Source: a virus
Length of the DNA stretch: 46,533 bases
Strand: one strand, 5' to 3'
IMG/VR virus record: IMGVR_UViG_3300045988_064709
Positions 1 to 46,533 of the stretch are shown piece by piece; position 1 is the stretch's first letter, and each line of letters opens with the position of its first letter. The position numbers and the translations under genes were made by a program. Below the pieces are notes generated by a model. The model ran no database searches. It was not told the DNA's origin and was given only the letters and a program-made list of their open reading frames with translations.

Positions 1-99
1 ATTTTTTTTTCAGCCCTTTATATTGTATAGCTGCCCTATTTGCGAAAAATCTTGATTTTCTTTTATATTTACACTTGACAAGTAAATGCAAATATGCTA
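1..99 (+). repeat. Terminal direct repeat copy 1, identical to 46435..46533
   Basis: Base-by-base comparison of both window ends gives 99/99 identity. This implies a circular or terminally redundant genome with a unique length of 46434 bp. Confidence 0.95.
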
Positions 100-11008: not shown

Positions 11009-11463
11009 GCGACCGATCTTCCAGAAGTGAGGGGGGCGGCGGCGACCATCGCCCCGCTCCCCTTCTCGCTTACACACCGAAGTTTTATGAGGTTTTTCCG
11101 TACTATCTTTCCATCGGCATGACCTATGAGCAGTTTTGGGAACAGGACTGCGAATTGGTGAAGTATTACCGAAAGGCGGCGCAGATCAGGCAAGACCTGA
11201 GAAATCAAGACGCTTGGCTCCAAGGAGCTTATTTTTACGAAGCTCTTATTGATGCTGCCCCGGTTCTTCGTGCTTTCGCCAAGAAGGGAACCAAGCCCAC
11301 GCCGTATCGGGAAAGCCCCTATGAGCTGTTCAGTCGGCAGGACAAGAAACAACAGAAGCAGCTTCAAGAAAAACACGATGACCAAGCCAAGGCATACATG
11401 GAAGCCTTTATGGTGTCGGTCAATAAGAAATTTCAAGAGAAAGGTGGTGGCGTAAATGGCTGA
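10667..11463 (+). CDS. Tail assembly chaperone GT-like fusion (requires a -1 shift at 10978..10984)
   Basis: After the slip the frame reads GGG AAA CCT GAG... without stops to 11463. The listed ORF 11119..11463 is only the ATG-bounded tail of this frame. Confidence 0.65.
10978..10984 (+). promoter_or_regulatory. -1 programmed ribosomal frameshift slippery heptamer G GGA AAC
   Basis: An X XXY YYZ heptamer in the zero frame of 10667..11008. The -1 frame is open from 10963 to 11463. Confidence 0.75.
10991..11023 (+). promoter_or_regulatory. Putative frameshift-stimulating hairpin
   Basis: TGGAAGA/TCTTCCA stem plus inner CGG/CCG pairs, starting 6 nt after the heptamer. Confidence 0.5.
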
Positions 11464-14400
11464 CAATGTGGAAATTCAGGGGTTGGAGTTTCAGATCGTC
11501 AATGACAGTACGCAGGCGGTCGCAGGGCTTCAAAACCTGATTAACACGCTCAATCGTTTGAAAACCGCTACCAACGGCGGCGCAACGGGTCTGAGCAAGA
11601 CCGCTCAGGGTATTCGGGAGCTTTCCAATTCTCTGAAAGGCTTGAACAGCGGTGACGCTTCGCAGAAGATCACCCGGCTTACCAATGCGCTGACCGCTCT
11701 GAGTCAGGTTGGAAATGTGAAGATTTCTTCCTCCATCGCCAACCAGCTCACGGCAATCAACACCGCTCTCGCTGGCCTGAAATGGACGGACGGCGACAAG
11801 TTGACTTCCCTTGCCAACGGTTTACGCCCTCTCTCCGAGTTGGGTAAGGCCAACATGACCACCTTTATCAATCAGCTCTCCAAGCTGCCGAAGGTGATCG
11901 AGGATTTGGAAGCGGCGGACATTGACAAGTTCACACAGCAGATGACCGCTCTTGCCGCCGCCATGAAGCCTTTTGCCGATGAAATGCAGAAGGTGTCCAA
12001 CGGCTTCTCGGCGTTTCCGTCCAAAATCCAAAAGCTGATTACCAGCACGGAGAAATACAACGCTTCTGCCCGTAAAGCAACCTCCACTACCGGTAAGTTC
12101 ACAAGCGGATTGAAAGCGTTGAATGTCGCCGCTGTTGCAATCACTTTCCGCAAAATTGGACATTTCATCGCACAGGCGGTCACGGAGTCCAACAAGTATC
12201 AAGAAGACCTGAACCTGTTCACGGTTGCCTTGGGGCAGTATGCCGCCGAAGCTCAAAACTACGCTGAAAAGGTATCCGATGTTATGGGTATCGACCCGGC
12301 ACAGTGGCTCCGCAATCAGGGTGTTTTCAACACGCTGCTGACCGGCTTCGGTGACACGGCTGAACGAGCGCAGCTCATGAGCCAAAACCTGACACAGCTC
12401 GGCTACGATATTTCTTCCTTCTTCAATATTTCCATTGAAGACGCTATGCAGAAGTTACAGTCCGGTATTTCCGGCGAGTTGGAACCTCTACGGCGCTTGG
12501 GCTACGATTTGTCGCAGGCACGGTTGGAGCAGACCGCTTTGAACCTTGGTATCAAGGAAAGCGTTGCAAACATGACGCAGGCAGAAAAGGCCGAGCTGAG
12601 ATACTACGCCATTATGACTCAGGTAACGACCGCTCAGGGCGATATGGCGAGAACGCTGGAAGCTCCCGCAAACCAGCTTCGTATCTTGCAGGCACAACTT
12701 ACACAGGCCGCACGAGCGATCGGTAACATCTTCATTCCCGCACTGAACGCAATTCTTCCTTATGCAATCGCTGTTGTTCAGGTCATTCGGGAGATCGCTG
12801 ATGCCCTTGCCAACCTTGCAGGGTTCAAGCTAACCGATGTGGACTATTCGGGAGTGAATAGCGCTGCTGTCGGAGCCGGGTCTTTGGCTAATAATCTCGA
12901 TGACGCTGCCGGTGCTGCCAAGAAGCTGAAACAGTACACCGCAGGCTTTGACGAGCTGAATGTCTTTGCTCCCAACACGGGAAGCGGTTCCGGGGCGGGT
13001 GCTGGTGGCGCAGGCGGATTCGATTTCGATTTGCCTACCTACGATTTCCTTGGTGACGCTGTGCAGACTCGCATTGGTGAAATCAAGAAGATGATTGAGG
13101 ACACTCTCGCAGAGATCACCACGATTGTTTCCGGCTTTATGCTGGCGGTAGGTGCAATTCTGGTTGTAACCGGTGTGAATATTCCGCTGGGTGTCGGCCT
13201 GATGGCGGCGGGTGCAGTCGGCCTTGCGGCTACCGTTGGGCTGAATTGGACGGCTATGAGTAGCGAACTGGCAAGTACGCTGGCTCTCATTACAGGTGTT
13301 GTCGGCGGCTTCCTGCTGGCTCTTGGCGCAATTATGGCGTTCTCCGGGGCGAACCTTCCTCTTGGTATCGCTTTGATGGCCTTGGGTGGAGCAAGCCTTG
13401 TATCTGCCGCTGTTATCAACTGGCATAACAGCGACCGGCACCTCACTGACGCTTTGACCACCTTAACGGGAGTTCTGGCGGGTGCTTCTCTGGCGGTAGG
13501 CGCTATGTTGGCCTTTACCGGGGTCGCAACCGGGCTGGGTATTGCGCTGATGGCTGTTGGTGCTGTCACGCTTGTATCTGCCGCAGCTCTGAACTGGAAC
13601 AGTATCCCGGACGCTCTGGCTTCTCCCTTGTCCAGAGTAGGATTGCTGGTCAGCGGAGCAACCTTGGCGCTCGGCGCTATCCTCGCTTTCTCCGGGTGTA
13701 TGCCCCTCGGCATTGCGCTGATGGCTATTGGCGCTACTTCTTTGGTTTCTGTAATGGCTCTTAACTGGAATGGCCTGAGCGATGAAATCCAGAATGTGAT
13801 TGCCATTATTACCACGGTCGTATCTGTGGCGTTCCTCGCTATCGGTGCGGCACTGGCGTTCTCCGGGGCGAATATTCCGTTGGGTCTGGCTCTGCTGGCG
13901 GCGGGTGCGGTCACAATGGGTACGGCTATTATGCCGAACTGGAATGACCTCTCTGACAATGTTCAGCAGAAGATCAGCATGATTACCACCGTTGTCGGCG
14001 GCGCTCTCTTGGCGGTCGGCGCTATCCTTGCTCTGAGCGGAGTCGCCCTTCCTCTTGGTCTTGGCCTGATGGCGGCTGGCGCATTGAGCCTTGGCGCTGT
14101 TGCTACCCTGAATTGGGATTTTGTTGTTAATTCCATTAAGAAGGTTGTATCGGTCATTACAGGTATTCTCAGCGGTGCATTGATCGTTCTCGGTGTCCTG
14201 CTGTGCCTGAGCGGTGCGGGTGTTGGCCTTGGTCTGGCGGTACTGGCGGCGGGTCTGTCCCTGTCGTATGCGGCATGGACGCTGGACGATAACCCCATTA
14301 CTCGCTTTGTACGACAGATGGCAAACTCCATCATTGGACTTGTGAACGGTGTCATTGACGCAATCAATGATATGTTCCACATCCAGTTCAACGGCCTGTC

Positions 14401-14776
14401 TGTTATGGGTATCACGCTTATTCCGGCGTTTGATATTCGATTGGTGGATATTCCGCATATTCCGTTCTTTGAAGACGGCGGTTTCCCGAATGAAGGGCAG
14501 CTCTTTATCGCCCGTGAAGCGGGTGCGGAAATGGTCGGTGCGATGGGTCGCAGAACAGCGGTTGCCAACAATGACCAGATCGTTGAGGGTATCTCCGCAG
14601 GCGTGTCCATCGCCAACGATGGCGTAATCGCCGCTATTTACGCTCTGCTGAATGTCGTTGAGGAAAAGGACTTCTCCGTGAATATTGGTGACAATCAGAT
14701 CGGTGAGTCTTATGACCGTTATAACCGAGCCAGAGGTGTTCGCGTGAATACCGGCGCTTTCAGTAATGCCTACTAA
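11456..14776 (+). CDS. Tape measure protein
   Basis: 1106 aa, the largest gene, sitting after the chaperones. Helical N-terminal half, hydrophobic repeat core, conserved C-terminal region. Confidence 0.85.
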   Translation: MADNVEIQGLEFQIVNDSTQAVAGLQNLINTLNRLKTATNGGATGLSKTAQGIRELSNSLKGLNSGDASQKITRLTNALTALSQVGNVKISSSIANQLTAINTALAGLKWTDGDKLTSLANGLRPLSELGKANMTTFINQLSKLPKVIEDLEAADIDKFTQQMTALAAAMKPFADEMQKVSNGFSAFPSKIQKLITSTEKYNASARKATSTTGKFTSGLKALNVAAVAITFRKIGHFIAQAVTESNKYQEDLNLFTVALGQYAAEAQNYAEKVSDVMGIDPAQWLRNQGVFNTLLTGFGDTAERAQLMSQNLTQLGYDISSFFNISIEDAMQKLQSGISGELEPLRRLGYDLSQARLEQTALNLGIKESVANMTQAEKAELRYYAIMTQVTTAQGDMARTLEAPANQLRILQAQLTQAARAIGNIFIPALNAILPYAIAVVQVIREIADALANLAGFKLTDVDYSGVNSAAVGAGSLANNLDDAAGAAKKLKQYTAGFDELNVFAPNTGSGSGAGAGGAGGFDFDLPTYDFLGDAVQTRIGEIKKMIEDTLAEITTIVSGFMLAVGAILVVTGVNIPLGVGLMAAGAVGLAATVGLNWTAMSSELASTLALITGVVGGFLLALGAIMAFSGANLPLGIALMALGGASLVSAAVINWHNSDRHLTDALTTLTGVLAGASLAVGAMLAFTGVATGLGIALMAVGAVTLVSAAALNWNSIPDALASPLSRVGLLVSGATLALGAILAFSGCMPLGIALMAIGATSLVSVMALNWNGLSDEIQNVIAIITTVVSVAFLAIGAALAFSGANIPLGLALLAAGAVTMGTAIMPNWNDLSDNVQQKISMITTVVGGALLAVGAILALSGVALPLGLGLMAAGALSLGAVATLNWDFVVNSIKKVVSVITGILSGALIVLGVLLCLSGAGVGLGLAVLAAGLSLSYAAWTLDDNPITRFVRQMANSIIGLVNGVIDAINDMFHIQFNGLSVMGITLIPAFDIRLVDIPHIPFFEDGGFPNEGQLFIAREAGAEMVGAMGRRTAVANNDQIVEGISAGVSIANDGVIAAIYALLNVVEEKDFSVNIGDNQIGESYDRYNRARGVRVNTGAFSNAY
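13127..14290 (+). repeat. About 7 tandem coding repeats of roughly 174 bp (58 aa) inside the tape measure gene
   Basis: The L/I-N-W codon motif recurs at 13241, 13415, 13589, 13760, 13934 and 14108, with spacings of 174/174/171/174/174 nt. Each unit is a Gly/Ala/Leu-rich hydrophobic pair (..GAILAFSG.N.PLG.ALMA.GA..L....LNW). Confidence 0.8.
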
Positions 14777-18041: not shown

Positions 18042-19187
18042 ATGAAAGATACTGTCATTAAGGGCAACGGTAAGTCCCGTTCTGTCAAGGCTCCTACCGA
18101 TATGCCTGCAACCTTCGAGGAATGGCGCACACAGCTTCTCGCCGGAACTGCCACCCTCGACATTGGTCTGAACGCCGCAGGCTGTGATGTGGTCGGCACA
18201 GCCATGAGCAAGGCAAATCTGCTGTCCGACACCACCAAGTCGGCACTGGAACTGAGCGGCAGCGACCCCACGGTGAATGACGCTCTGTATGCTCTGAGCC
18301 AGAAAGGTTCCCCCGCAGAGGTGCGTGTCATCGCTGATACAGGCTCGACCGTCACCATGAGCAGGGGCGGTAAAACCCTGACCGGTAAGGTTGCTTCGAC
18401 CGGCTATGCCACTCTGTACCCGACCGAGCTGGGTGACTGGACTATCGTGTTTACTTATAACGGTTCTCAGAAAACCAAGGTTTACACGCTGGAAGTCATC
18501 GGTATTGTGTATGTTTATCCCTTTGTGGTTGGCGCTACGCTGGAAGCTACCTCTTGGGATAACATCGCCGCTGTTTCCAAGTTCGGTCAGGCTCCGAACT
18601 ACTGGAAGGTCGGTGACAAGAAGAACATTACCGTCAACGGTGTGACCTATGCGGCACAGATCATCGGTTTTGACCATGACACTCTGACCACCGCAGACGG
18701 TAGCCGCACCAAGGCTGGTATCACCTTCCAGTTGGTCGATTGTTTGAACACGACCTATTCCATGAACGGCTCCAATACCAATGTGAACGGCTGGCGTGGT
18801 TCCACTATGCGTACCTCCACAATGGCAACACTGCTGAACCAGCTTTCCTCTGACCTGAAAAGTGTGTTGAAGTTCGTCAACAAAGTGACCAGCAAGGGCA
18901 ACAATCAGTCCGGTTTGGAAACCACTTCTGACAAGCTGTTCCTTCTGTCCGAGATCGAAGTTTTTGGTGCTACTCAGTATTCTTACGCCGGTGAGGGTAA
19001 GCAATACGAGTATTATACCGCAGGCAACAGCACCATTAAGAAGGTCAATGGTTCTGCGCACAGCTGGTGGGAGCGTTCTCCTATTTCCGGCAACACCTCC
19101 GACTTCTGTAGTGTGAACAGCAGCGGCACCGCCGACTATTACACCGCCAGCTACTCCTGTGGCGTGTCCTTCGGCTTCTGCGTTTAA
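18042..19187 (+). CDS. Tail fibre / receptor-binding protein, DGR target 1
   Basis: 381 aa. The C-terminus WWERSPISGNTSDFCSVNSSGTADYYTASYSCGVSFGFCV is encoded by VR1. Confidence 0.85.
   Translation: MKDTVIKGNGKSRSVKAPTDMPATFEEWRTQLLAGTATLDIGLNAAGCDVVGTAMSKANLLSDTTKSALELSGSDPTVNDALYALSQKGSPAEVRVIADTGSTVTMSRGGKTLTGKVASTGYATLYPTELGDWTIVFTYNGSQKTKVYTLEVIGIVYVYPFVVGATLEATSWDNIAAVSKFGQAPNYWKVGDKKNITVNGVTYAAQIIGFDHDTLTTADGSRTKAGITFQLVDCLNTTYSMNGSNTNVNGWRGSTMRTSTMATLLNQLSSDLKSVLKFVNKVTSKGNNQSGLETTSDKLFLLSEIEVFGATQYSYAGEGKQYEYYTAGNSTIKKVNGSAHSWWERSPISGNTSDFCSVNSSGTADYYTASYSCGVSFGFCV
19052..19181 (+). repeat. DGR variable repeat VR1
   Basis: Ungapped alignment to TR 19715..19844. In the body I count 18 mismatches, all at TR adenines. 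Confidence 0.9.
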
Positions 19188-19211
19188 TCCTCGGTTTCAT
19201 CAACACCAATC

Positions 19212-19229
19212 CCGCCCCGTCAGGGGCGG
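19212..19229 (+). promoter_or_regulatory. GC hairpin downstream of VR1 (CCGCCCC GTCA GGGGCGG)
   Basis: 7-bp perfect stem with a 4-nt loop. The 24-nt context AATCCCGCCCCGTCAGGGGCGGTG is repeated after VR2. Confidence 0.75.
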
Positions 19230-19249
19230 TGTAAGAAAGGAATGTTGGC

Positions 19250-19678
19250 GTGTCAGTCATCAAAGCTATGCGTGGCGAAAGCTCCATGCAGTTCATCGAA
19301 ACCGCCAGACGGTTAGAGCTTCACGCTTTCTCTGTCTGCACCAAGGCTCCTAAAAGATACGCACCTCTGCTGACAAACCGTATCTTCGAGCTGGCTTCCA
19401 CGGTTCACGAGGAAGTCCGAGCGGCGAACAACATCTACCCGCACAATCAGCATGAAGCGCAAATGCGGCGAGATCACCTGATTAACGCCAACATCGCCCT
19501 TCAAAATCTTAGCCCGAAGCTGACTTTGCTCTATGACGCTATTCTTCAAAACCCTGAAAAGTGTCCGTGGATTGACCACGCCATGAAGGAATTTGGAGAG
19601 TACATCACGGACGAAGCACAGCTTATCTCCAAGGTTCGGAAAGCTGACCACGAGAGGTATAAAGACCTCCCTGTGTGA
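19250..19678 (+). CDS. avd: DGR accessory variability determinant (Avd-like)
   Basis: About 140 aa, helical and basic, located between the target gene and the TR as in BPP-1. GTG at 19250 or ATG at 19268. Confidence 0.7.
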   Translation: MSVIKAMRGESSMQFIETARRLELHAFSVCTKAPKRYAPLLTNRIFELASTVHEEVRAANNIYPHNQHEAQMRRDHLINANIALQNLSPKLTLLYDAILQNPEKCPWIDHAMKEFGEYITDEAQLISKVRKADHERYKDLPV

Positions 19679-19714: not shown

Positions 19715-19844
19715 TTCTGCGAACAACTGGTGGGAGCGTTCTCCTAATTCCGGCAACACCAACAACTTCTGTAATGTGAACAACAACGGCAACGCCAACA
19801 ATAACAACGCCAGCAACTCCAATGGCGTGTCCTTCGGACTCTGC
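19715..19844 (+). repeat. DGR template repeat (TR)
   Basis: AAC/AAT-rich. It would translate as NNWWERSPNSGNTNNFCNVNNNGNANNNNASNSNG. It serves as template for both VR1 and VR2. Confidence 0.9.
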
Positions 19845-20066
19845 AACTTCGCATAGGTCAGTCGTAGTAACCCCTTTGGGCGAAATCGGTACCTTTTGCA
19901 GAGGGAGGGCTTGTTCCCGGCTACCAAGCCAAAACACCCCGTCCGATGTAGTCAGCCGGACGCTTCTTGCATGGTGAGCGATTGTACGGTAGCTCATTTC
20001 ATGGCTGGTACTACAAGCAGTTAGAACCCGTACCCGACAATAAGACTGTACGGAGGGGAACATTTT
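19715..20066 (+). ncRNA. Putative DGR RNA (TR plus about 220-nt spacer upstream of the RT)
   Basis: No credible ORF. It lies between avd and the RT. In characterised DGRs the TR-spacer RNA primes cDNA synthesis. The boundaries here are inferred. Confidence 0.5.
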
Positions 20067-21215
20067 ATGACAAGTGAAGAACGGAGAGAAGCCCGTTATC
20101 AGCGCAGAAAAGCCAAGCGGGATGAAGCTCGTCTGCGGCGAAGCAAAGAATGTGGTGATTTCGATGAAGTCTTTTCGTTCAGACACCTTTACCTTTCCGG
20201 GAAGAAATGCTGTAAGGGTGTCTACTGGAAAAACTCAACTCAGCGGTATATCGGCAATATCATTCCGATCATCGCAAAGACCCATCGTGAACTTCAAAAC
20301 GGAACCTTCAAGCACCGTGGTTTTCACGCTTTCACCATCATGGAACGAGGGAAAAAGCGGTATATCCGATCAGTCCATATCACGGAACGAGCGGTTCAAA
20401 AGTGTCTGTGTGACTACTGCTTGGTTCCCATCTATTCGGCCTGTTTTATCTATGACAACTCAGCCAGTTTGAAACACCGAGGTATGGACTTCGCCCTGCG
20501 CCGTATGACCTGTTACCTTCAACGGCATTACAGGAAGTACGGTCTGGAAGGAGGGGTTCTGCTTTACGATTTTCACAGCTTCTTTGACTCAGCTCCACAT
20601 GAGCCGCTGTTCCGTGAAGCCGACCGCAGACTTCATGACCCGAAAATCAGAGAGCTTGCGAACAGCTTTGTTACAGACTTCGGTTCTGTGGGCTTGGGTC
20701 TTGGCAGTCAGGTGTCTCAGACAAACGCCCTCATGCTTCCCAATATGATCGACCACTATTTCAAAGAGGTCTGCCGTATCAAAGCCTATGAGCGATACAT
20801 GGACGATGGTGCGGCAATCAGCCCTGACATTGATGACCTGTATCTCTGTATGGACGGGTTGAAGATCATCTGCGAGAAGTGCGGTCTGGAACTGAACTTG
20901 AAGAAGACAAGGGTCATTCCTCTCAGAGATTATTACCGCTGGTTGAAAACGAGGTTCATCATCACACCGACCGGCAAGGTTGTTCGGAAGATGAACAGGG
21001 ACTCAACAAAAATCGTTCGACACAAGCTCAGGGCTTTCCGAGGAAAGCTCGACCGGGGCGAAATGACCTTGGCTGACATTCGGTGTTCCGTGGACTCCTA
21101 CAACGGTCACATGAAGCGAGGTCACAGCTTCAAGGTGCGGCAGCGCACCAATCAGTATTTCAAATCATTGTACGGGTTCTACCCGGACGAGAAAGGTTGG
21201 AAAAGCCATGTATAA
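20067..21215 (+). CDS. DGR reverse transcriptase
   Basis: 382 aa. Carries LGLGSQVSQ (the DGR-type LGxxxSQ motif 4) and RYMDDGA (YxDD). RBS GGAGGGG. Confidence 0.9.
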   Translation: MTSEERREARYQRRKAKRDEARLRRSKECGDFDEVFSFRHLYLSGKKCCKGVYWKNSTQRYIGNIIPIIAKTHRELQNGTFKHRGFHAFTIMERGKKRYIRSVHITERAVQKCLCDYCLVPIYSACFIYDNSASLKHRGMDFALRRMTCYLQRHYRKYGLEGGVLLYDFHSFFDSAPHEPLFREADRRLHDPKIRELANSFVTDFGSVGLGLGSQVSQTNALMLPNMIDHYFKEVCRIKAYERYMDDGAAISPDIDDLYLCMDGLKIICEKCGLELNLKKTRVIPLRDYYRWLKTRFIITPTGKVVRKMNRDSTKIVRHKLRAFRGKLDRGEMTLADIRCSVDSYNGHMKRGHSFKVRQRTNQYFKSLYGFYPDEKGWKSHV

Positions 21216-22161: not shown

Positions 22162-22272
22162 AAGGTGAAAAAGGTGAGTAATCGGGTCAAAATCCCTATA
22201 ACTTTCTTTTAGTATGCGTGTATAAGAAGGAGTTTATAGGAAAAACGCCCGATTACTCACCTAACTCACCTA
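22162..22272. repeat. Palindromic element A (about 111 bp), upstream of the holin gene
   Basis: Perfect 15-bp arms AGGTGAGTAATCGGG (22172..22186) and CCCGATTACTCACCT (22248..22262). An extra AGGTGA half-site lies outside each arm. Inner CCTATAACT / AGTTTATAGG pairing. Confidence 0.85.
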
Positions 22273-22296
22273 AATTAAAAATTGGAGGTAAAAATT

Positions 22297-27241: not shown

Positions 27242-28075
27242 ATGAATAGTACGATTGCAAAACTCGCTGACGAGTTCGAGAAGATGGAGAAAATCATCGC
27301 TTCTCAGAAGAAGATGATCGAAACCCTTATGCCTACGGGCTATGTTGATACCGATACCGTCAAACTTCACCTTAATTCTGTGTATGGTGTCATGTTCGGC
27401 GGTCGCCCCTCTCCGAAGCGCTGCAAGCTGGAAGACTGTTCTTGGGACGAGATCAATATGTATTCCTCCTTCGGCCTTGCCGACAAGATGTTCGAGGTCG
27501 GTGATACCAAGAAGTTCCGTCTGGCTGACGGCTCCTACCTGACTGCCCGTATCATCGGGTTCAACCATGACTACGCAAGAGACGGCAGTCTGGTTCATAT
27601 CACCTTTGAGACTGTGGAAACCCTTGACGGTGACATTCCTATGAATGAGAAGCCTACCAACGAGGGCGGCTGGGACGCTTCCTATCTCCGTGCCAAGCTC
27701 AACGGCAACTTCTTCGAGAAGCAGCTTCCCGCTGATTTGAAAGCGGTCATCAAGCCCGTGGTGAAGATGACCGCCAAGAGCAGCAAGAACGAAGTACGGG
27801 TTCCTTCCGTTGACAAGCTGTTCGTTCTTTCTGAGCAGGAGGTCTTCGGTCGCAAGATTTATTCCTGCGGTTATGAGGGTAAGTGGTACGAGTGGTACAA
27901 GCGAGAGAACACGCCCTATGGCAAGTGCAAGCAGAATGGTGAGAAGGATTGGAGATGGGAGCGTTCTCCTTGTTCCGGCGACACCAACTACTTCTGTAGG
28001 GTGAACTACAACGGCATCGCCAACGGTAACAACGCCAGCTACTCCTTTGGCGTGTCCTTCGGCTTCTGCATTTGA
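27242..28075 (+). CDS. DGR target 2, a paralogue of the C-terminal half of target 1
   Basis: 277 aa. Shares SWD, IIGF(D/N)HD, LF(L/V)LSE.EVFG and W.ERSP....GVSFGFC with 18042..19187. AAAGGAG RBS. Confidence 0.85.
   Translation: MNSTIAKLADEFEKMEKIIASQKKMIETLMPTGYVDTDTVKLHLNSVYGVMFGGRPSPKRCKLEDCSWDEINMYSSFGLADKMFEVGDTKKFRLADGSYLTARIIGFNHDYARDGSLVHITFETVETLDGDIPMNEKPTNEGGWDASYLRAKLNGNFFEKQLPADLKAVIKPVVKMTAKSSKNEVRVPSVDKLFVLSEQEVFGRKIYSCGYEGKWYEWYKRENTPYGKCKQNGEKDWRWERSPCSGDTNYFCRVNYNGIANGNNASYSFGVSFGFCI
27956..28069 (+). repeat. DGR variable repeat VR2
   Basis: Ungapped alignment to TR 19731..19844 shows 13 mismatches at TR adenines plus one T-to-G difference at 28000. Confidence 0.85.
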
Positions 28076-28093
28076 TCGGGTATCTCGTAAATC

Positions 28094-28111
28094 CCGCCCC
28101 GTCAGGGGCGG
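28094..28111 (+). promoter_or_regulatory. GC hairpin downstream of VR2, identical to the one after VR1
   Basis: CCGCCCC GTCA GGGGCGG within the identical 24-nt context. Confidence 0.75.
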
Positions 28112-28127
28112 TGAAAGGAGTGAAAAC

Positions 28128-28532
28128 ATGAATGTCAATCGTAAGGTTGGCACTGGCTTTGAAAGAGACTTATGCCTGAGCCTGTCGGGTTGTGGCTTTT
28201 GGGCGCACAATCTCACTCAGAACAGTCAAGGTCAGCCGTTCGATGTGATTGCGGCTCGAAACGGTATCAGCTATCCCATTGACTGTAAGGATTGTTCCAA
28301 GAACATTTTCAAGATGGAGCGTATCGAAGAAAACCAGTTTTCCGCTATGACGCTCTGGAAGGAAACCGGGAATGGAGAGGGCTGGTTTGCAATCAGGTTG
28401 ATAACTGGTGAAGTTCGATTTATCTCCTTCTCTACGCTTTTGGAATTGTCTGTTTTGCGAACCGTGCTGTCTGCCAACGATATTAGGCGATACGGTATCA
28501 CACTCGGAGAGTGGGTGTCCCAATGCAAGTGA
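28128..28532 (+). CDS. Holliday junction resolvase (Hjc/PD-(D/E)XK-like)
   Basis: 134 aa. The G.GFER....L...G, D+IA and DCK pattern is present. AAAGGAG RBS. Confidence 0.6.
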   Translation: MNVNRKVGTGFERDLCLSLSGCGFWAHNLTQNSQGQPFDVIAARNGISYPIDCKDCSKNIFKMERIEENQFSAMTLWKETGNGEGWFAIRLITGEVRFISFSTLLELSVLRTVLSANDIRRYGITLGEWVSQCK

Positions 28533-45463: not shown

Positions 45464-45520
45464 GTTTTTGCAAAGACTTTTTTCAAATTGGCGTGTTTTG
45501 AAAAATTGTTTTTCGTATTT

Positions 45521-45630
45521 TAGGTGAGTTAGGTGAGTAATCGGGCATAAATGCCTATAACTCTCTCTTATACGCGCGTATATAGAAATAGTTATAGGGA
45601 AATGCACCCGATTACTCACCTTTATCACCT
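45521..45630. repeat. Palindromic element B (about 110 bp), upstream of terS
   Basis: Arms AGGTGAGTAATCGGG (45531..45545) and CCCGATTACTCACCT (45607..45621), inner CCTATAACT/AGTTATAGG, and the centre palindrome TACGCGCGTA. The 25-mer 45521..45545 equals the reverse complement of 22248..22272. Confidence 0.9.
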
Positions 45631-45657
45631 TGGCGACTTTGAAAGGAGAAAAAGACT

Positions 45658-46434: not shown

Positions 46435-46533
46435 ATTTTTTTTTCAGCCCTTTATATTGTATAGCTGCCCTATTTGCGAAAAATCTTGATTTTCTTTTAT
46501 ATTTACACTTGACAAGTAAATGCAAATATGCTA
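46435..46533 (+). repeat. Terminal direct repeat copy 2, identical to 1..99
   Basis: 99/99 identity. Confidence 0.95.

Follow-up and report, generated by a model that had tools for sequence, protein, structure and literature searches.

Identical GC-rich hairpins after both variable repeats of a gut phage diversity-generating retroelement are probable target-site elements

The uncultured human-gut phage represented by IMG/VR virus record IMGVR_UViG_3300045988_064709 carries a diversity-generating retroelement (DGR) with two dispersed target genes, and each of these genes is followed by the same short GC-rich hairpin. We analysed the whole stretch of 46,533 nucleotides, referred to here as the window. 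Very probably each hairpin is a cis-acting target-site stem-loop of the phage DGR, able to form a hairpin or cruciform and of one kind with the inverted repeat that Bordetella phage BPP-1 carries downstream of its initiation of mutagenic homing sequence. We infer this function by analogy with that system and by comparison with related loci. Two exact copies of the 24-mer AATCCCGCCCCGTCAGGGGCGGTG lie on the + strand at 19208-19231 and 28090-28113, and each contains a perfect 7-bp stem, G:C throughout, closed by the 4-nt loop GTCA. A sequence-only reading of this DNA had placed one and the same hairpin element after both variable repeats (VRs), 21 and 15 nt past the stop codons, and had described the stem CCGCCCC/GGGGCGG with its GTCA loop. 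We recovered the element with this structure at both sites, beginning at the 21st base past the target 1 stop codon (TAA, 19185-19187) and at the 15th base past the target 2 stop codon (TGA, 28073-28075). The hairpins, and the retroelement to which we assign them, are laid out as follows; TR denotes the template repeat, RT the reverse transcriptase and IMH the initiation of mutagenic homing sequence.

Positions 19212-19229, + strand: hairpin 1, with arms CCGCCCC at 19212-19218 and GGGGCGG at 19223-19229 and the loop GTCA at 19219-19222.
Positions 28094-28111, + strand: hairpin 2, of the same sequence as hairpin 1, with arms at 28094-28100 and 28105-28111 and the loop at 28101-28104.
Positions 18042-19187, + strand: target gene 1, with a C-terminal DUF6273 domain; VR1 forms its 3' end.
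Positions 19052-19181, + strand: VR1, in which the homology to the TR ends at the TGC of 19179-19181.
Positions 27242-28075, + strand: target gene 2, with a C-terminal DUF6273 domain; VR2 forms its 3' end.
Positions 27956-28069, + strand: VR2, in which the homology to the TR ends at the TGC of 28067-28069.
Positions 19715-19844, + strand: TR, with the IMH*-like 3' end GGACTCTGC and no GC hairpin after it.
Positions 19250-19678, + strand: avd-like accessory gene, 142 aa, matching phrog_3206 'Avd protein of DGR' (E = 2.5e-6).
Positions 19853-20078, + strand: RT-2 RNA (RF03077), a structured RNA in the interval between TR and RT, with a full-length Rfam match scoring 167 bits (gathering score, 40).
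Positions 20067-21215, + strand: DGR reverse transcriptase, 382 aa, matching PF00078 and phrog_1423 (E = 2.6e-66).

The phage thus encodes a complete DGR, made up of target 1, avd, TR, RT-2 RNA and RT, with a second target approximately 8 kb downstream. VR1, the TR and VR2 were returned by a repeat search as a family of three members, in which the VR2 copy spans 27940-28069. Both VRs end in GGCTTCTGC and the TR in GGACTCTGC, the difference falling at 19838-19839, and beyond the final TGC the VR and TR flanks show no relationship to each other. Ahead of the IMH, all 17 of the 17 differences between VR1 and the TR fall at TR adenines, as do 12 of the 13 differences between VR2 and the TR. The same pattern was observed among related contigs, which yielded 41 distinct sequences from 43 copies of VR1 and 48 from 49 copies of VR2. 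Common variation was seen at 35 of 38 TR-adenine positions in VR1 and at 31 of 34 in VR2, compared with 3 of 92 and 1 of 80 of the other positions, respectively. Both genes are therefore true, active DGR targets that are diversified at TR adenines in natural populations. Their protein products are paralogs with 41% amino acid identity. The avd-like gene begins 20 nt past hairpin 1 and was matched in PHROGs alone, being unrecognised in searches of Pfam and NCBIfam. We presume that the RT-2 RNA is the structured spacer of the DGR RNA, to which RT-Avd is recruited. We also observed a small covarying stem-loop approximately 25 nt past the end of the TR, which reads CCCC-TTT-GGG in the window and CCGCC-GGAA-GGCGG, among other forms, in relatives.

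Within the window the 24-mer is confined to the two VR flanks, as a search allowing up to three mismatches gave no further match (expected number zero, from 100 shuffles). The hairpin by itself has a predicted single-stranded DNA folding energy of -9.8 kcal/mol. Compared with shuffled sequence, the two VR flanks gave fold z-scores of -2.4 and -3.3 and the TR flank, from 19845 onward, gave +0.69; no GC hairpin was found when we looked for one in this TR flank. Perfect hairpins with a stem of at least 7 bp, at least six G:C pairs and a loop of 4-6 nt occur twice in the 46.5 kb, both times at a VR, although this number is in itself ordinary, since shuffled versions of the window contain a mean of 0.98 such hairpins and a maximum of five. 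What is unusual is the placement of the two hairpins together with the sequence identity of the copies. The DNA of the two target genes has diverged, and the 24-mer stands as an island of 100% identity outside the region that is rewritten by homing. No Rfam family was matched at either hairpin.

The association with VRs extends to related phages. A scan for VR ends with GGCGTGTCCTTCGGCTTCTGC, subsequently relaxed, gave 72 distinct downstream sequences, which were classed as VR-type where a stop codon immediately follows the TGC. CCGCCCC-NNNN-GGGGCGG or a near variant was present in 53 of the 56 distinct VR-type flanks and in none of the 16 TR-type flanks. The stem begins 24-26 or 30 nt past the TGC in these sequences, and the loops are GTCA, GTTA, GTAA, GGAA or GCAA. 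The variants include one double compensatory change (CCGCTCC/GGAGCGG), two stems with a G-T wobble (CCGCCTT in locus L140 and TCGCCCC in locus L111) and one with a mismatch (locus L133). For a broader comparison we collected RT homologs and took 160 DGR loci with RTs 48-99% identical; the RT-alignment query supplied the 80 closest loci (72-99% identity), the P0068 query supplied one locus, and the diverged clades were reached through P0114. A script called a VR wherever a repeat of the sequence upstream of the RT had 70% or more of its mismatches at TR adenines, and a hairpin was counted if it had at least 7 bp, at least six G:C pairs and a loop of 4-6 nt within 90 nt. The 204 VR matches obtained in 151 loci reduce to 90 distinct flanks, and 82 of these carry a hairpin. 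The same criterion applied to 74 distinct TR flanks from the relatives gave none, and the background was 2.3% for random 90-nt windows and 3.8% after the stop codons of other long open reading frames. The claim of the sequence-only reading that the TR lacks the hairpin was consequently borne out both in the window and in its relatives. Among the eight VR flanks that failed the criterion one is a deletion, and the rest belong to a single clade in which an imperfect hairpin with an unchanged loop lies approximately 57-62 nt away; elsewhere in the relatives the distance between stem and VR is 21-30 nt. The gene that follows target 1 is always avd, whereas target 2 is followed, depending on the clade, by a Hjc-like resolvase, an 81-aa protein or an Xre-type helix-turn-helix (HTH) protein. 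This variation in the next gene indicates that the hairpin belongs to the target and not to its neighbour.

The stems of the relatives vary in sequence while retaining the ability to pair. Across the clades we tabulated by hand, counting from the closing pair, 13 distinct stems, all of which pair. These include CCGCCCC, CGGGGCC, GCGGGGC, GCGGCCC and CCAGCCC, and further CCGGCCC, CCCGCCC, CCGCAGC, CCGCGCC and TGCGCCC. Double changes are found at six of the seven stem positions overall, and the closing pair is C-G except in one wobble variant. A formal count of pairs was made on the 12 gap-free tetraloop cores out of 20, as MAFFT mis-registered the stems of the full set. In this subset both sides have changed in four of the seven pairs, and none of 500 shuffles reached the observed covariation score. 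We also compared the two hairpins of the same genome in 45 loci that have both, with target 1 lying just upstream of avd and target 2 approximately 5.7-8 kb past the start of the RT. In the clade of the window the stem is CCGCCCC at both targets and the loops drift independently, GTCA being paired with GTTA, GTAA or GGAA at the other site. In two sister clades the stems differ inside one genome (CGGGGCC versus GCGGGGC, and GCGGCCC versus CCAGCCC), with the loop class common to both. Identity of the two stems is therefore a lineage-specific property and not a requirement. The sequence-only reading had argued from the conservation of the element at two dispersed sites that it is the target-recognition mark of the DGR; the placement and the relatives favour such a mark, but copy identity itself is not the marker, as the sister stems differ.

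Exact copies of the 24-mer were scanned for in IMG/VR, which gave 103 copies in 102 stretches. It had been predicted that every occurrence should mark a VR, and that the same 24-mer at many non-VR sites would point to a generic element. All 103 copies lie directly after a VR end, in a target 1 or a target 2 context, and none is at a non-VR site, although the copies are not independent because the contigs are close relatives of one human-gut phage. The degenerate core ATCCCGCCCCGNNAGGGGCGG was found in 105 stretches of GTDB genomes, with six VR-linked matches, and the four of these six that are named are all from Dysosmobacter or Oscillospiraceae. The cultured strain Dysosmobacter segnis BX15 (NZ_JACOQI010000020.1) contains a near-identical prophage with both VR hairpins, which suggests an Oscillospiraceae host lineage; the host of the phage is likely Dysosmobacter or another member of the Oscillospiraceae. 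The approximately 100 non-VR sites in unrelated bacteria comprise terminators and a repeat family. In related Clostridia (Oscillibacter, Lawsonibacter) the terminators that contain ATCCCGCCCCGNNAGGGGCGG have a longer stem followed by TTTTT. The repeat family occurs in Planctomycetota, Verrucomicrobiota and Acidobacteriota. The stem-loop core is thus generic, and specificity must come from the VR end, the spacer and the hairpin jointly. As a separate observation, a widespread repeat family, seen in GTDB metagenome-assembled genomes (Phycisphaerae, Chthoniobacter, Akkermansia-like, Thermoanaerobaculia and Chlamydiae), carries GCCACGGGTG...CAACCCGTGG as its first hairpin and ATCCCGCCCCGGCAGGGGCGG(A/C)GGA approximately 15-25 nt beyond it. 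It is unrelated to DGRs, and no Rfam match was obtained at its positions.

The DNA between each VR and its hairpin also contains a recurring pattern, set out here for the two spacers of the window.

Positions 19182-19211, + strand: spacer 1, 30 nt from the end of VR1 to hairpin 1, starting GTT TAA, with ATC at 19187-19189, 19199-19201 and 19209-19211.
Positions 28070-28093, + strand: spacer 2, 24 nt from the end of VR2 to hairpin 2, starting ATT TGA, with ATC at 28075-28077, 28082-28084 and 28091-28093.

The spacers had been described as otherwise unrelated, and this holds for their bulk, which has diverged, yet each has TTTRATC over its stop codon, then an internal ATC, and finally AATC against the stem. 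The target 1 spacer has the same three ATC triplets with a 5-nt insertion. A phased motif, TTTRATC-N4-ATC-N6-8-AWTC-stem, is kept across clades whose RTs are 52-99% identical. In 36 distinct spacers of 23-27 nt there is no or almost no variation at +2 to +8 (TTTRATC, which overlaps the stop codon), and ATC occupies +13 to +15 in 35 of the 36. The AWTC next to the stem is partly conserved, with the outer A and C nearly invariant and the middle two positions weaker, and the columns between the triplets carry approximately 0-0.6 bit and are essentially random. The number of ATC triplets per spacer is 3.06, compared with 0.58 expected. The motif is absent from the single locus with an RT 48% identical. 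We considered a -10-like promoter in the TTTAAT of the spacer and found this unconvincing, as position 2 lacks the A and target 2 reads TTTGAT.

The loops vary in a comparable way. In sister clades the VR hairpins have 5-nt CTYGT or 6-nt CTGTGY loops and not the 4-nt GNNA (for example in loci L375, L377, L416 and L406). The loop class follows the RT lineage and is common to the two targets of one genome even where the stems are unlike. It may be that RT/Avd or a host factor recognises the spacer motif and the loop classes in a lineage-specific way, or that both are simply co-inherited. It is possible, though we put this forward tentatively, that the DGRs of gut Oscillospiraceae phages use a composite and partly sequence-specific target site, consisting of the VR end, a 24-30 nt ATC-phased spacer and a stem-loop with its loop class matched to the RT/Avd lineage, and not a generic GC hairpin alone. 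If the DGR machinery does read these spacer or loop features, they would amount to orthogonal target 'addresses'.

Hairpins of this type have been studied in other DGRs. In BPP-1 an inverted repeat rich in GC, located immediately beyond the IMH, forms a hairpin or cruciform and is needed for efficient homing; changes to the stem sequence are tolerated and changes to the loop are not (PMC3240598). That element does not set the site of cDNA integration, and hairpin and IMH together suffice to bring a new gene under DGR targeting (PMC3240598). A survey of phage DGRs described GC stems of 7-10 bp with 4-nt loops, 4-34 bp from the VR (Guo et al. 2011, Fig. 5, PMC3240598), and eight of these DGRs gave the loop consensus 5'-GRNA on the sense strand, which is not an absolute rule (PMC3240598). 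In a larger set, high-confidence inverted repeats were reported in 34% of 372 DGRs and were absent after the TR (Wu et al., PMC5758913). A 2026 study that rebuilt the DGR of BPP-1 in E. coli found that deletion of the repeat impairs editing severely but not completely (PMC12875486). The hairpins in the window share the distance from the VR (24-30 nt), the 7-bp GC stem, the 4-nt loop and the absence after the TR, and in the relatives the structure is kept while the stem varies. We therefore place them in the known DGR hairpin class, all of whose structural features they show with the exception of a strict GRNA loop.

Several other explanations have to be weighed against a target-site role. The hairpin might work at the RNA level, folding in the polycistronic mRNA and either stabilising the 3' end of the target-gene transcript, serving as its processing site or partly attenuating the next gene (avd-TR-RT after target 1), with no direct role in homing or only an added one. 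It does lie in a transcribed intergenic gap, 7-21 nt before the next start and just 5' of the Shine-Dalgarno sequence, and the stems of L140 and L111 are among the few variants that pair only through G-T, which is G-U in RNA. No U-tract follows the hairpin, however, and the ribosome-binding site is not sequestered. In addition, within the window the hairpin is found after the two VR-bearing genes only, and among the relatives it tracks the VR whatever gene follows. The C-A mismatch on the sense strand of L133 is a G-T wobble on the other strand; as L133 opposes L140 and L111, the wobble evidence on RNA versus DNA cuts both ways, with too few cases. The same kind of element in BPP-1 works as DNA (PMC3240598), and overall we regard an RNA-level function as unlikely.

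A generic intrinsic terminator, or a dispersed repeat of the repetitive extragenic palindromic (REP) type, that is present by chance is highly improbable. Such a reading could draw on the occurrence of the ATCCCGCCCCGNNAGGGGCGG core at approximately 100 non-VR GTDB sites, which include real terminators and a repeat family, and on the minus strand of copy 1, which was flagged as weakly terminator-like. The + strand was left unflagged by the terminator scan, and the stems are followed by TGTAAGAAAGG in copy 1 and TGAAAGGAGTG in copy 2, neither of which provides a T-tract; a coding-strand T-run was seen in none of approximately 50 VR-linked variants. A terminator of the phage's own, built on the same stem core, does have such a run.

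Positions 1643-1667 (within 1643-1686), + strand: canonical intrinsic terminator with the stem core of the VR hairpin, CCGCCCCGG-TGCTATT-CCGGGGCGG followed by TTGTTTTTTGCGTTTT.

Most DGR inverted repeats likewise lack terminator features (Wu et al., PMC5758913). A REP element, or a miniature inverted-repeat transposable element (MITE), would be expected in many copies, but there are two in the window, and these and the 103 of 103 in IMG/VR are all at VRs. We consider the terminator or REP reading largely refuted. We give next to no credence to the idea that the hairpins are a functionless relic, left by duplication of the paralogs or by a recent tract of gene conversion. The targets are indeed paralogous, with a common layout of their 3' flanks, and one stem occupies both sites within the window's clade. 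But the coding DNA and the spacers are heavily diverged around an invariant stem, the two stems of the sister clades differ and are both still perfect hairpins, and the hairpin is never found on TR flanks. The independent drift of the loops at the two sites (GTCA with GTTA or GGAA) also makes ongoing conversion disfavoured.

There are also observations that count against a target-site stem-loop. An RNA-level role is possible because transcription also runs through the hairpin, which immediately precedes the next ribosome-binding site, and the element is not universal to DGRs, given that Wu et al. found it in only 34%. The loop GTCA departs from the GRNA consensus in having T at position 2. Its ends, G and A, are retained, the GGAA of relatives fits GRNA, and with GTAA, GTTA and GCAA the consensus of the family becomes GNNA. 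Pairing in the tetraloop subset, which is 100% and falls to 37-63% when the partner column is slid, is partly so by construction because the cores were chosen as the best hairpins; what counts as independent evidence is how VR flanks differ from TR flanks and from background. Within the window's clade the stem is almost invariant, and the covariation comes mainly from the sister clades. Finally, natural variants without an intact hairpin exist. In locus L104 (IMGVR_UViG_3300045988_089336) the 3' arm of the hairpin at target 2 is deleted, and in L113/L341 (IMGVR_UViG_3300045988_028085) a deletion at target 1 takes the hairpin together with the start of avd.

If the hairpins do serve as target-site stem-loops, the BPP-1 system suggests how they might operate. 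In unwound or negatively supercoiled target DNA the inverted repeat would fold into a hairpin or cruciform, and the folded repeat would mark the VR as the recipient, apart from the donor TR. By the same analogy it would raise the efficiency with which the VR is replaced by adenine-mutagenised cDNA made by RT-Avd. Proposed routes are that the structure keeps the target strand open so that the cDNA can anneal, or that a factor of the DGR or of the host recognises or cleaves it. The hairpin probably boosts homing without being strictly essential, and the point of cDNA integration would not be set by it.

The gene that lies downstream of hairpin 2 encodes a putative resolvase.

Positions 28128-28532, + strand: Hjc/RecU-like Holliday-junction resolvase gene (PF01870, phrog_843), starting 16 nt past hairpin 2.

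Cruciforms resemble Holliday junctions. We rejected a conserved link between hairpin and resolvase, as the two lie side by side in the window's clade only, and the other clades have the HTH or the 81-aa protein in this position. Elsewhere in the genome, the two ends of the window (1-99 and 46435-46533) are exact direct copies of each other over 99 nt, as is typical when a phage assembly is circular or terminally redundant. A palindromic element of approximately 115 nt is present in two copies in inverted orientation (22162-22277 and 45516-45631; 78% complementary), built of AGGTGA and AGGTGAGTAATCGGG motifs about an AT-rich core, and these may be operator, partition or origin-type sites. Six tandem repeats of 174 nt (58 aa), rich in Gly, Ala and Leu, occupy 13142-14254 within an open reading frame of 1106 aa (11456-14776), a pattern typical of repeat regions of the tape-measure or transmembrane type.

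The hairpins described here are an ordinary but very clean instance of an already-known kind of element, and they leave the current understanding of DGRs unchanged. They extend the BPP-1 hairpin rule to an abundant lineage of uncultured human-gut phages in which one RT diversifies two dispersed genes. The natural series, with its 13 stems, three loop classes, spacer motif and rare hairpin deletions, could inform how engineered or orthogonal targets for DGRs are designed. As in BPP-1 and the set of Guo et al., the element lies past the TR homology, between the target gene and avd, and its loop starts with G and ends with A. Stem structure is also favoured over stem sequence, as in BPP-1, with differing stems and a common loop class in the sister clades. 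There are differences. The spacer here is 24-30 nt with ATC triplets, whereas the BPP-1 spacer is 4 bp and freely changeable, and sister clades have loops of 5 and 6 nt, although the addition of 2 nt to the BPP-1 loop abolished function. Unlike BPP-1, a single RT here serves two dispersed targets with identical hairpins.

Other systems offer partial parallels. The DGRs of Nanoarchaeota likewise have a short inverted repeat at the VR with a lineage-specific, constrained loop, in their case a GRA triloop, which shows that loop form varies between DGR lineages; their triloops sit within the target coding sequence, whereas the tetraloop here is intergenic (Paul et al. 2015, PMC4372165). Rho-independent terminators share the GC-rich stem, the short loop and the position past a stop codon, but the hairpins here lack a T/U tract and the next gene follows 16-20 nt on, at target 1 within the same DGR cassette. 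Group IIC introns, retroelements related to DGR RTs, similarly have their targets marked by a DNA stem-loop rich in GC, in which structure matters and not sequence (PMC3240598). These introns insert downstream of terminators with a U-tract, and the loop sequence is unimportant to them; the hairpins described here have no T-run and conserved loop ends, and they accompany replacement of a VR in place of insertion.

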